A stretch of 59,697 bases of DNA. Source: a virus (lineage: Duplodnaviria; Caudoviricetes). Positions 1,076-3,120 of the stretch are shown here, piece after piece. Position 1 is the stretch's first letter, and each line of letters opens with the position of its first letter. A program made the translations under genes and the position numbers. The DNA lies in IMG/VR virus record IMGVR_UViG_3300034414_000011, positions 1-59,697 of that record; one strand, written 5' to 3'. The notes under the pieces were generated by a model. The model was given only the letters and a program-made list of their open reading frames with translations, was not told the origin of the DNA and did not search any database.

Positions 1076-1103
1076 TTGATTCTCTCTTTCAACTATGTAG
1101 AAT
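1076..1103 (+). promoter_or_regulatory. Sigma70-like promoter upstream of the DIP1984-like gene
   Basis: TTGATT, 16 nt, TAGAAT with AT-rich upstream region. Confidence 0.5.
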
Positions 1104-1138: not shown

Positions 1139-1648
1139 ATGAAGATTATCGAGGGAATGAAGAAGATCAAGGATCTCCAGCGGAAGGCAGAAGACTTGAG
1201 AGGGAAGATCGGCGCTCATAGTGCTGACCTGGACTTCGAGACTCCTCTGTACGAGAACCAGAAACTCCAGGTTGCCGAATGGCTCCAGGCGCACAGTGAC
1301 ATCATGAAAGAGATCCTGCGTCTCCGCATCGCCATCCAGAAGACGAATCTCCTCACCGATGTGACGATCACCATTTGCGACAAGCCGGTGACGAAGAGCA
1401 TTGCCGAGTGGATTCATCGCCGGAGAGACCTGGCGCAGTCTGATTATTCTGCCTGGGCGAAGCTGACTGACCGGGGCTTGAAGGAAGGCACCATCACTCA
1501 GTCAACCGGCCAGCTCAAGGAAGTGAAGATCCGCCGCTATTACGACCCGCTTGCCAGGGACCAGAAGCTCGACGAGTACCGGAGTGAACCTCACCTTATC
1601 GACGCGACTCTGGAGGTTGTTAACGCTGTGACAGACCTTATCGAGTAG
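1139..1648 (+). CDS. DIP1984/DUF6847-like alpha-helical protein
   Basis: GGAGG RBS; MKIIEG..., IQKTN..T, SIAEWI.RR and terminal ID..LEVVNAVTDLIE resemble the DIP1984 family pattern (recognition by eye). Confidence 0.6.
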   Translation: MKIIEGMKKIKDLQRKAEDLRGKIGAHSADLDFETPLYENQKLQVAEWLQAHSDIMKEILRLRIAIQKTNLLTDVTITICDKPVTKSIAEWIHRRRDLAQSDYSAWAKLTDRGLKEGTITQSTGQLKEVKIRRYYDPLARDQKLDEYRSEPHLIDATLEVVNAVTDLIE

Positions 1649-1680: not shown

Positions 1681-2021
1681 GAATAGCCGACGCGCAGAGA
1701 TACAAAACCGGACGAAAAAGGGCGCTATCGCAAGCGTTATTGCGAACTCAGACTAGAGAAGCTCATGGCGAGCAACTGACTCTTAATCAGTGTGTACGGT
1801 TCGATTCCGTCTCATTCCAAATAGACTCCACACCGCGAGTCTGTTTCAAGGGCGCAAGGCTCAAGAGATCAAGGCATCAAGTCTCAATCTGAGTAAGGAA
1901 GCAAGTAGGCAAGGCCAAAGGGTGCAACGCGGACGTTAGTGCCGCGAATGACCTGGGACAAGTTTATGTTTCCCTTTTTATAACCGGAACTTTCCGGGCT
2001 TCCTGTTCGGGCGGCTAATTC
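1681..2021 (+). ncRNA. Candidate ~340-nt structured ncRNA with embedded tRNA-like domain and CAAG repeat array
   Basis: Nested pairings 1681-1689/2012-2021, AAAAAGGG 1715-1722/CCCTTTTT 1972-1979, ACTCAGA 1746-1752/TCTGAGT 1888-1894; local hairpins 1728-1745, 1819-1846, 1928-1946, 1984-1997; no convincing ORF. Confidence 0.7.
1752..1819 (+). pseudogene. Degenerate tRNA-Lys(CTT)-like element
   Basis: D arm GCTC/GAGC, anticodon arm ACTGA-CTCTTAA-TCAGT, T loop TTCGATT, ends in CCA; acceptor stem reduced to about 3 bp. Confidence 0.7.
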
Positions 2022-2577: not shown

Positions 2578-3016
2578 CGCCATAGTGAGCAACTTGTGGG
2601 AAGAAATTTTTTGTCTGCAAAAAAGCATCGAAAAGCTCAAGGGCAGTCGGGTTGAAATCGTGACCTGTACTGACTGCGGCTGTATGGTCGAAAAGACGAA
2701 AGCCAGAGAGCTTGAGCCTACTATCATGAAACATGGGCTGAGACCCGCATATCTACCGAGCTTTATAGAGCACAAAGAATACACCGTCATTCCGCACTTT
2801 ATCTGTTGGGGTTGCGACAAGGCCAGGAAAGAAGCGGTAGAGGTGAAAGGGTTGGCGGAAGACCTGCTCGAAGCCGCTGACGCACTGTTCGATTCCCTCG
2901 ACAAAGAAGGTTGCAAAACCCTTTGCGATGATCCGTGTAACCCTGCTTGCGATGCCTGCCAGGCACCAAGGCCGACTGAGGCAGGTGTAACCGGTAAACC
3001 GAATGTCCCAGGTTAA
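2552..3016 (+). CDS. Hypothetical Cys-rich protein
   Basis: Purine-rich RBS before ATG 2552; several CxxC pairs. Confidence 0.55.
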   Translation: MFVTKKRHDAIVSNLWEEIFCLQKSIEKLKGSRVEIVTCTDCGCMVEKTKARELEPTIMKHGLRPAYLPSFIEHKEYTVIPHFICWGCDKARKEAVEVKGLAEDLLEAADALFDSLDKEGCKTLCDDPCNPACDACQAPRPTEAGVTGKPNVPG

Positions 3017-3120
3017 CTCAGAAAACAACAAGAAGAGGGAGACTGAGTGCCCTCGATGCGGGGCACCCTTAACCGGGTGCCTTTGTCGTAACTGCGGGTT
3101 CAGCGGTTGCGGAGGTCTTT

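Follow-up and report, generated by a model that had tools for sequence, protein, structure and literature searches.

A conserved array of AAG slots within a structured phage RNA and its linkage to a gene for a DUF6847/DIP1984-like protein

We sought to explain why the word CAAG recurs at intervals of about 8 nucleotides (nt) between two genes of a virus of the Caudoviricetes, IMG/VR record IMGVR_UViG_3300034414_000011. The whole stretch of DNA analysed, hereafter the window, is the complete record of 59,697 nt, the ends of which repeat 127 nt, and the genes near the array are phage-like, for example one for a RusA-like resolvase. The array lies in a 395-nt gap between an open reading frame (ORF) at 1139-1648 and another at 2044-2577. 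A first-pass annotation, made from the letters alone, had counted about 11 units in the array and had proposed that each CAAG is held by one subunit of an oligomeric ring or filament, probably formed by the protein of the adjacent gene. We find that the CAAG run forms the centre, purine-rich and apparently unpaired, of a structured RNA of ~330 nt (window 1685-2016). Comparison of homologous loci identifies this RNA and the adjacent gene, which encodes a protein of 169 amino acids, as the two parts of one module. The idea of a protein-read array is partly supported by these comparisons, with binding of the protein to the array as a candidate mechanism.

A word search placed CAAG at 1847, 1855, 1862, 1870, 1878, 1902 and 1910, in agreement with all seven positions given in the first-pass annotation, and the variants that it named (CAAT at 1885, TAAG at 1894, AAAG at 1917 and CAAC at 1925) are likewise present in the sequence. 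CAAG is a common word, with 513 occurrences on the plus strand of the window. The longest chain of CAAG at 7-9 nt spacing on both strands of the window has five members; when the whole window was shuffled 200 times with dinucleotides preserved, the maximum was two in 186 shuffles and three in 14. A chain of five bare AAG triplets was equalled or exceeded in 4 of the 200 shuffles. At this bare-AAG level the window by itself is suggestive and gives moderate support; the decisive support is comparative. Tandem Repeats Finder, applied to 1500-2200 with a minimum score of 30, reported no tandem repeat. This blank result fits a periodicity of motifs without identity of units, and the periodic array itself was confirmed. 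A sequence-only model of the array (R2) has its sole match in the 59.7 kb of the window at 1845-1925 (expectation value (E) 6e-14, 50.5 bits), and it also matches the equivalent place in homologous RNAs, with one match per RNA.

The estimate of about 11 units had to be lowered. Alignment gives nine conserved slots, five and four on either side of a double-length linker, and the seven CAAG words together with TAAG 1894 and AAAG 1917 are conserved as such slots. CAAT 1885 falls inside the conserved double-length linker, rich in A, that separates slots 5 and 6, CAAC 1925 is the start of a variable hairpin, and neither is conserved as a unit. All nine slots (U1-U9) are occupied by AAG in the window, with U1 and U8 displaced by one base from the family consensus. 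The tract is purine-rich on the plus strand, with A 36%, G 28% and C 14%. The parts of the array are as follows:

1847-1882, plus strand: first half-array, U1-U5, with AAG at 1848, 1856, 1863, 1871 and 1879 (alignment).
1883-1893, plus strand: central double-length linker, with a U5-to-U6 distance of 16 nt here; the site of hairpin insertion in other lineages.
1894-1921, plus strand: second half-array, U6-U9, with AAG at 1895, 1903, 1911 and 1918 (alignment).

We scored slot occupancy, defined as AAG within 2 nt of the register, in 56 distinct full-length arrays. From U1 to U9, AAG was found in 52, 51, 45, 43, 52, 56, 30, 41 and 51 of these arrays, and each RNA has between five and nine occupied slots (5, 6, 7, 8 and 9 slots in 1, 8, 21, 13 and 13 RNAs). 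The usual substitutes are ACG, ATG and CAG. Modal slot spacings over 31 arrays are 8, 7, 7, 8, 16, 8, 8 and 7 nt, each seen in 25-30 of the 31 except for the central gap, which is 16 nt in 19 arrays and otherwise 15-18 nt, with one of 27 nt; among the 56 arrays the U5-U6 distance is 15-19 nt in 55. The base 5' of AAG is C or U about equally often, the base 3' of it is mostly G, and linkers otherwise vary, the consensus being YAAG(G) about 8 nt apart in five slots, a turn or linker, and four slots. As these alignments present it, the array is conserved as slots and not as sequence. Three loci of the phage clade (L018, L288 and L297 in our numbering) have hairpin-forming insertions at the U5/U6 junction. 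Chains of exact AAG of at least seven members were found outside the gene in 20 of 41 loci, a count that misses degenerate arrays, and on the minus strand of the 41 loci no chain exceeded five. These exact counts, which in L015 and L017 had caught Lys-rich coding sequence, were replaced by R2 and by R1, a covariance model of the 3' domain of the RNA. In a background of 154 unrelated viral loci (1.44 Mb, both strands) AAG chains of at least seven fell on 11 strands and chains of at least nine on two, and the latter (L090 and L091) are low-complexity coding sequence, rich in Lys and Glu, in which the spacings are multiples of three.

The RNA that encloses the array was delineated by comparison of homologues, in which its size is ~290-385 nt. 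Five helices (P1, P2, P3, P4 and P6) were assigned on an alignment of 21 sequences (A2). The elements of the RNA, apart from the array itself, are as follows:

1685-2016, plus strand: whole structured RNA, from the P1 5' strand to the P1 3' strand (A2, covariation).
1685-1689, plus strand: P1 5' strand, AGCCG, which pairs with 2012-2016; both-side changes in 5 of 5 pairs.
1690-1707, plus strand: conserved 5' box, family consensus GACGNGCAGAGATAAAAAC (alignment).
1708-1711, plus strand: P2 5' strand, CCGG, a long-range pseudoknot with 1984-1987; both-side changes in 4 of 4 pairs.
1722-1745, plus strand: small H-type pseudoknot, CGC/GCG and UCGCA/UGCGA (seen by eye in many homologues).
1756-1813, plus strand: tRNA-like element nested in the RNA, its acceptor stem short and its anticodon-loop triplet CUU (sole Rfam match in the window, truncated; tRNA, 33.5 bits, model positions 5-66).
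1824-1843, plus strand: hairpin AGACUC-loop-GAGUCU just 5' of the array (single-sequence fold).
1928-1946, plus strand: variable hairpin P5, which leads from the array to the 3' domain and differs in sequence in every homologue (by eye).
1946-2011, plus strand: conserved 3' domain with GAAUG, P3, P4, the P2 3' strand, GGCUUCC and P6 (covariation; R1, 69 bits).
1952-1957 with 1993-1998, plus strand: P3.
1960-1964 with 1988-1992, plus strand: P4.
1984-1987, plus strand: P2 3' strand.
2002-2004 with 2009-2011, plus strand: P6.
2012-2016, plus strand: P1 3' strand, CGGCU (covariation).

P2 is a pseudoknot relative to P3 and P4. In the covariation count on A2, 89.2% of cells pair and 16 of the 23 pairs (96 cells) show changes on both sides, in a count that favours the structure somewhat, since the structure was derived from the same sequences. 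None of five covariation measures was reached in any of 500 shuffles (0/500), and when the 3' partners were slid by 1-3 columns as a control, pairing fell to 31.5-60.7%. Even so, the count supports the structure strongly, and compensatory changes are found in P1, P2 and P3, with four or five pairs each. For the 5' H-type pseudoknot the register of the alignment drifts by one column between sequences, and this element is a reading by eye. The window itself carries the features proposed for the family: R1 matches at 69 bits and R2 at 50.5 bits, its helices fit the covarying columns, and its nine slots are filled. RNAalifold placed zero pairs in the array columns, which is a weak test, as the length-variable hairpin P5 was missed too, and the mean unpaired probability is 0.57 for the AAG triplets and 0.42 for the remaining RNA. 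In these predictions the array appears unpaired. Since it appears so and lies inside an RNA supported by covariation, a role as a binding platform at the RNA level is reasonable.

We then asked what accompanies the RNA. The gene next to the array is the sole conserved neighbour:

1139-1648, plus strand: gene for the 169-amino-acid DUF6847/DIP1984-like protein (Pfam, Foldseek, neighbour clustering).

Twenty-three viral contigs encode this protein at 51-66% identity, and beside the gene they have in common the 5' box, a tRNA or hairpin, a YAAG run and the strongly conserved 3' domain. R1 matches the window and 35 of 35 loci in which the homologue is at least 50% identical (22 viral, 11 from genome bins and 2 further). 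The first-pass annotation expected periodic AAG arrays next to homologous genes, and such arrays were found, with matching slots, register and strand, in 77 of the 80 viral loci of a second protein-based set (all 77 matched by R1; the set overlaps the first to a large extent, with 21 loci on contigs of the first set) and in 11 of 11 bin loci. Every R1 match is on the strand of the gene. As to the three misses, one contig ends past the start of the array (L361) and the other two loci (L348 and L356) have no RNA in their flanks. Across 98 unrelated viral loci (875 kb) R1 gave one match, and that locus encodes the protein. The RNA lies 3' of the gene in most loci and directly upstream of it in others, such as L004, L149, L151 and L153, and in L008, L012 and L017 an extra ORF separates the two. 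Other gene clusters are common to at most five loci, barring antisense ORFs that overlap the gene. Judged by this co-occurrence, the array RNA and the adjacent gene constitute a two-part module. Genome bins with the module are labelled with about 10 phyla, although their contigs may be mis-binned phage. A BLASTN search of the region against GenBank phages gave no match, and a TBLASTN search of the protein against 50,697 GenBank phage records found no member. Searches that started from the RNA say little about RNA without the gene, as most of their matches are due to chance: a scan of viral contigs for a 14-mer of the 5' box gave at least three RNA-bearing loci by the 3'-domain test among the 81 matches listed (80 loci), with the gene and the box present in L031, where the locus is incomplete, and a scan for an 18-nt 3' pattern gave at least two RNA-bearing loci among the 82 matches listed (80 loci), with L237 having the 18-nt motif alone, unconfirmed by R1.

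More distant relatives of the protein, at 27-34% identity, are encoded in L154-L157, L159, L162 and L163, from bins labelled Synergistaceae, Acidobacteriota and Promethearchaeota. Their genes are followed by a different RNA, which R1 does not match. In the Synergistaceae and Acidobacteriota loci this RNA has terminal helices of 10-14 bp, the strands of which lie ~250-290 nt apart, and the sequence of the terminal helix differs between the two groups. By eye, all seven loci have five NAAG, a hairpin and four NAAG at a period of 7 nt, with ACG again the common substitute in the slots. In L154 (Promethearchaeota bin) a perfect 12-nt inverted repeat (3340-3351/3405-3416) pairs the neighbourhoods of AAG units 1 and 6; it was not seen in the other clades.

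We characterized the protein by profile, fold and complex prediction. Its Pfam match to PF20935 (DUF6847) is marginally over the cut-off (27.2 bits, cut-off 27) and its NCBIfam match to DIP1984_fam is under it (34 bits, cut-off 70). The AlphaFold2 model (confidence measure pLDDT 93) is a helical fold that Foldseek aligns with 3kdq at E 1.3e-4, probability 1.00 and TM 0.56-0.62. The entry 3kdq is a Corynebacterium diphtheriae protein with no function assigned and is the founding DIP1984 structure, and the model indicates that the phage protein shares this fold. The family comprises 1,701 proteins at E up to 0.001 in a collection clustered at 90% identity, none with an informative name, and 739 clusters at 50% identity. 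When four copies were modelled together, the interface score ipSAE was 0.78, and the best of three controls scored 0.02; in calibration, which unlike this prediction did not use four copies, the mark was reached by 20 of 30 proteins whose solved structures are pairs of one chain and by 1 of 23 whose solved structures are single chains. Prediction runs agreed in at least 96% of contacts, with partner pLDDT of at least 87, and the pass may reflect memory if 3kdq was solved as an oligomer. The protein is therefore predicted to self-associate, as the first-pass annotation had supposed. The predicted interface is dimer-like and symmetric, since the same residues touch on both copies, and a head-to-tail ring of the TRAP type is not indicated. 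Residues invariant in both protein clades cluster in an N-terminal segment, MKIIEGMK, and a C-terminal one, IDxxLEVxNAxTDL. There is little overlap between these segments and the listed interface residues, so that a conserved surface remains free for another partner, and the segments would be the RNA-facing surface. Searches for known relatives gave little else: PHROGs and PADLOC had no match for the protein, a PDB sequence search returned an insignificant match to UvsY (E 0.37) and a PDB profile search none, a BFVD fold search had none at E up to 0.001, and an Atlas search returned hypothetical, mostly viral clusters. Fold matches to TasH-tigRNA structures (E 0.2-0.5) were set aside as coiled-coil noise. 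Longer fused forms of the protein were not found, which is weak evidence.

How might such a protein use such an RNA? We put at about even the chance that the array is a multi-site docking platform for the module's own DUF6847/DIP1984-like protein, with dimers assembling on the AAG slots. The fixed number and spacing of the slots, the free linkers, the unpaired state, the tolerant junction and the strict linkage to a self-associating protein all argue for a defined protein-RNA assembly. In the mechanism that we propose, the slots would dock the protein in the form of symmetric dimers, each dimer would grip two AAG sites, and some four or five dimers could be accommodated per RNA. The RNA may fold back at the central linker such that U5 faces U6, U4 faces U7, U3 faces U8 and U2 faces U9, with the dimers as bridges from one half-array to the other, and the outcome would be a defined ribonucleoprotein and not a loose sponge. 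Since the interface is symmetric, a ladder of dimers fits better than a ring; a two-fold-symmetric dimer naturally bridges antiparallel strands. The occupancy of mirrored slots is roughly alike (of 56 arrays, 52/56 at U5/U6, 43/30 at U4/U7, 45/41 at U3/U8 and 51/51 at U2/U9). We infer the stoichiometry, the fold-back geometry, the binding of the protein to the slots and any downstream role. A fuller version of the proposal seems to us possible but doubtful: a horizontally mobile ribonucleoprotein unit, harboured by uncultured phages and with cousins in cells, in which four or five dimers would zip U1-U5 and U6-U9 together antiparallel, as a ladder on a pseudoknotted scaffold with a passenger tRNA, and which would read or mimic Shine-Dalgarno-like YAAGG and so control the translation of its own and possibly of host or phage mRNA.

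Several observations weigh against docking of the protein on the array. Two loci, L348 and L356, encode the protein (50-52% identity) and have no RNA in flanks of 0.4-1.5 kb; they are either true exceptions or cases in which the RNA is located elsewhere. The co-occurrence of gene and RNA has another possible reading, in which the RNA is a cis-acting part of the transcript of the gene. In 401 proteobacterial genomes, four canonical DIP1984-family genes (160-187 bits) have no flanking AAG array by eye and no R1 match, so that partnership with the RNA does not extend to the entire fold family. No RNA-binding domain was recognized in the protein, for which Pfam, PHROGs, PADLOC and PDB sequence searches returned DUF6847/DIP1984 or nothing. 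Slot U7 holds AAG in just 30 of the 56 arrays. Finally, loss of AAG is not significantly correlated between mirrored slots (U4-U7 odds ratio 3.4, p 0.11; U3-U8 odds ratio 1.0), so that the fold-back geometry is without statistical support and is speculative.

The strongest competing explanation, which we nevertheless consider unlikely, is an architecture made of RNA alone, in which the AAG slots make tertiary or intermolecular contacts of the A-minor kind that shape a large RNA or a multimer, and the protein is a chaperone or unrelated cargo. The RNA is indeed large and pseudoknotted, a tRNA is nested in it in about half of the family, and its invariant adenines would suit A-minor contacts. 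The phage-associated RNAs GOLLD and ROOL provide a precedent, and GOLLD can nest a tRNA. Both are reported as RNA-only assemblies (bioRxiv 10.1101/2024.12.08.627333). Like GOLLD and ROOL, the RNA described here is ornate, pseudoknotted, encoded by phages or prophages and located among or around tRNA genes. It differs in that it is much smaller, contains an array of AAG slots and is linked to one particular protein gene, and Rfam found no family covering it, GOLLD and ROOL included, at E up to 1 in the window and up to 0.1 in six homologous loci. An explanation by RNA contacts would further have to deal with an array that has no covarying partners, with nine near-identical motifs at 7-8 nt for which the RNA offers no matching repeated receptor, and with a very tight linkage to one protein gene across very divergent lineages.

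A host factor could also be the reader, with the array as a platform or decoy, either a sponge of the CsrA/RsmA type or a mimic of the Shine-Dalgarno sequence that pairs with the 16S 3' end or holds the 30S subunit. Some units read CAAGGAU and the last slot is often YAAGGAUGUA (L010, L017 and L019), units of this type resemble the CsrA consensus and the AAGGAG core of the Shine-Dalgarno sequence, and G follows AAG in most slots. However, GGA is not conserved: an A two positions after AAG is present in 5, 5, 8, 9, 2, 5, 9 and 13 of 31 arrays at U1-U7 and U9, and the units of the window read GGG, GGC, GAG, GGC, GTC and so on. C is about as frequent as U before AAG, which does not fit pairing with the 16S 3' end. 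The motifs are not in hairpin loops, slot number and register are fixed, unlike in sponges with variable sites, and Rfam found no CsrB, RsmY or RsmZ. The fact that the bins are labelled with ~10 phyla favours a partner that is carried by the module. We judge a host factor to be distinctly improbable.

Iterons acting at the DNA level, that is operator, centromere or origin repeats for a DNA-binding protein, are very improbable. The array is intergenic in a phage genome, and short DNA motifs at 7-8 bp spacing are found in the ParG/parH tetramer boxes and the omega heptads, but it is always on the strand of the gene and at a fixed place in a structure with compensatory changes, its strand has the purine skew given above, hairpin-forming insertions fall at one fixed junction, and the neighbouring protein has no evident DNA-binding fold. 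Functionless low complexity arising by chance or slippage has a negligible probability and is already refuted by the comparative data, for in spite of the frequency of CAAG and the shuffles that reached five AAG, the CAAG chain of five stands above all 200 shuffles with no tandem repeat, the slots are conserved in 56 distinct RNAs with differing linkers, and AAG chains of at least nine fell on two strands of unrelated viral loci, both coding.

We compared the proposed docking of the module's protein on its array with known systems of repeated RNA motifs. The first-pass annotation had drawn on TRAP and Hfq, and these analogies hold in principle alone, since the defining spacings and motifs of both are absent here. 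TRAP, an 11-mer ring, binds 9-11 (G/U)AG triplets with 2-3 nt spacers in a 5' leader, HutP binds UAG triplets spaced by N4, a period of 7 nt, and the distal face of Hfq binds contiguous (ARN)n with a triplet periodicity. The feature that TRAP and HutP would share with the array is that of regularly spaced NAG triplets, one for each subunit of an oligomeric protein, and the HutP period is close to that of the array. In contrast to TRAP, the array has AAG, spacers of 4-5 nt (7-8 nt from start to start) and nine slots arranged 5+4 in a closed RNA of ~330 nt that is usually 3' of the gene, and the putative partner matches DUF6847 alone and not MtrB. Its predicted interface is symmetric and not ring-forming, and its fold is unrelated to those of TRAP and HutP. 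The period of 7-8 nt also differs from that of (ARN)n on Hfq. The closest match to the proposed mechanism is CsrA/RsmE on RsmZ. RNAs such as RsmZ and CsrB present ~8-20 short purine motifs, a CsrA/RsmE homodimer binds two of them, and several dimers are held per RNA. In contrast to these RNAs, the array has YAAG(G) and not GGA, in a linear unpaired tract and not in hairpin loops, with fixed 5+4 slots and register; the protein has the helical DUF6847 fold of 169 residues and not the small CsrA fold, and its gene and the RNA would make up one mobile module. ToxIN, a type III toxin-antitoxin system, has tandem direct repeats of 34-36 nt (ToxI) upstream of the gene of an endoribonuclease toxin. 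It resembles the present module in that a small protein gene beside a repetitive RNA moves as a module, with stoichiometric assembly of ToxI and its protein; the present array, by contrast, has no tandem repeat and has motifs of 3-5 nt, the RNA folds in a complex and unique way, and PADLOC found no match. The canonical DIP1984/DUF6847 proteins have the same fold as the phage protein, and the four canonical members noted above are without a flanking AAG-array RNA.

In the parts of the literature that were accessible, no description of the RNA and no function for the protein was found, although supplements of candidate motifs (e.g. PMC8040213) could hold the motif under another name. The terms DUF6847, DIP1984 and PF20935 led to a chance string in a paper on a needle transducer and to an Acinetobacter surveillance paper. 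What we propose as new is the RNA family, the use of this protein fold for the task and the motif, within the known kind of a repeated-motif RNA read by an oligomeric protein. The RNA is a new and widespread structured class, with ~80 viral contigs and bins of about ten phyla, and partnership with a specific RNA is a first functional lead for a protein family whose structure has been solved since 2009 (3kdq). If the binding is true, a new fold and a new motif would join TRAP, HutP and CsrA among oligomer-on-repeat RNA systems, and a system of this kind would be shown to travel with phages as a portable cassette of two parts. If the ladder or reader proposal is true, it would provide the first function for the DIP1984 fold. 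The fixed 5+4 design makes the hypothesis directly testable.

We examined the locus for hints of expression. One promoter-like site precedes the protein gene:

1076-1103, plus strand: sigma-70-like promoter, TTGATT-16-TAGAAT, ahead of the protein gene (consensus match only).

A consensus scan found no promoter-like site between gene and RNA, which suggests that the two are co-transcribed. A 334-nt metatranscriptomic contig (run X10) covers 1683-1752 and 1879-2009 and ends within a few bases of the ends of the RNA. The 126 letters of the window between these stretches are replaced in it by 131 different ones, and it therefore comes from a relative. A 231-nt contig from run X4, probably DNA, ends at 2008. 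The ends of these contigs are a weak hint of a discrete RNA, since transcript ends cannot be read from contigs; runs X4-X6, probably or possibly of DNA, give scattered coverage. We gave no weight to a 107-nt high-depth contig over 1770-1810, which is a look-alike of a tRNA T-arm, nor to bins without coverage. Two runs that contain the entire stretch bear the label sediment metagenome and may be where it came from; runs with a small share of it were not taken as a sign of habitat. Two AAG 6-9 nt apart at -35 to -1 were found in 14 of 41 family genes and in 20 of 258 crude control ORFs (Fisher p 1.9e-5), in a comparison where the family genes are related, the control starts are naive and ordinary ribosome-binding sites themselves contain AAGG. 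Feedback on the ribosome-binding region of the gene itself, which bears AAG, is a lead and nothing firmer. Reuse of the 5' box as a promoter for a phage polymerase was considered and rejected: the box occurs once in the window, where chance expects 2.4 loose matches, and since it is unrepeated there it is not a reused phage promoter.

The nested tRNA-like element varies across the family. Homologues have at its position either full tRNAs with varied anticodons or a plain hairpin, and about half of the family (10 of 22 loci by ARAGORN) has a tRNA within the RNA. The loci with a nested tRNA include L002, L005, L006, L008, L015, L016, L021, L023 and L024, and unusual anticodons among them are ACU, AUU, a two-base 'tt' and UCA. 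The copy in the window is degenerate, with a 3-bp acceptor stem. ARAGORN, run on the window, called neither a transfer-messenger RNA (tmRNA) nor the nested element, and the ends of the RNA form a plain 5-bp helix, without the tRNA-like domain that the ends of a tmRNA would give. Were RNase P and RNase Z to cut out a nested tRNA, we infer that a two-piece RNA joined by P1 and P2 would be left. A role of the CUU anticodon as a reader of AAG was dropped, as homologues nest many anticodons or none.

The module often lies at the edge of phage tRNA clusters (L014, L015 and L016). At L015 3594-5626, 17 tRNA genes are located downstream of the gene, and the RNA is among the first of them. The N-terminus encoded by the ORF at 2044-2577, just 3' of the RNA in the window, weakly resembles an HNH endonuclease (phrog_374, E 4e-8), and the extra ORF of L017 lies at ~2700-3100 between the DUF6847 gene and the RNA. 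Together these two ORFs suggest traffic of mobile endonucleases around the module. Upstream of the protein gene, at 862-990, a strong sigma-70-like promoter (TTGACA-17-TATAGT, 11 of 12 consensus positions) is followed by ~100 nt without a long ORF, which end in a hairpin GACCCCC...GGGGGUC and a T-run; this stretch may be a separate small RNA. Further upstream, the ORF at 301-822 has an inner start that reads MKRLFVLVFLLSLVGC, a lipoprotein-like signal with a lipobox cysteine, and by eye it has a strong promoter-like site of its own at ~266-295.

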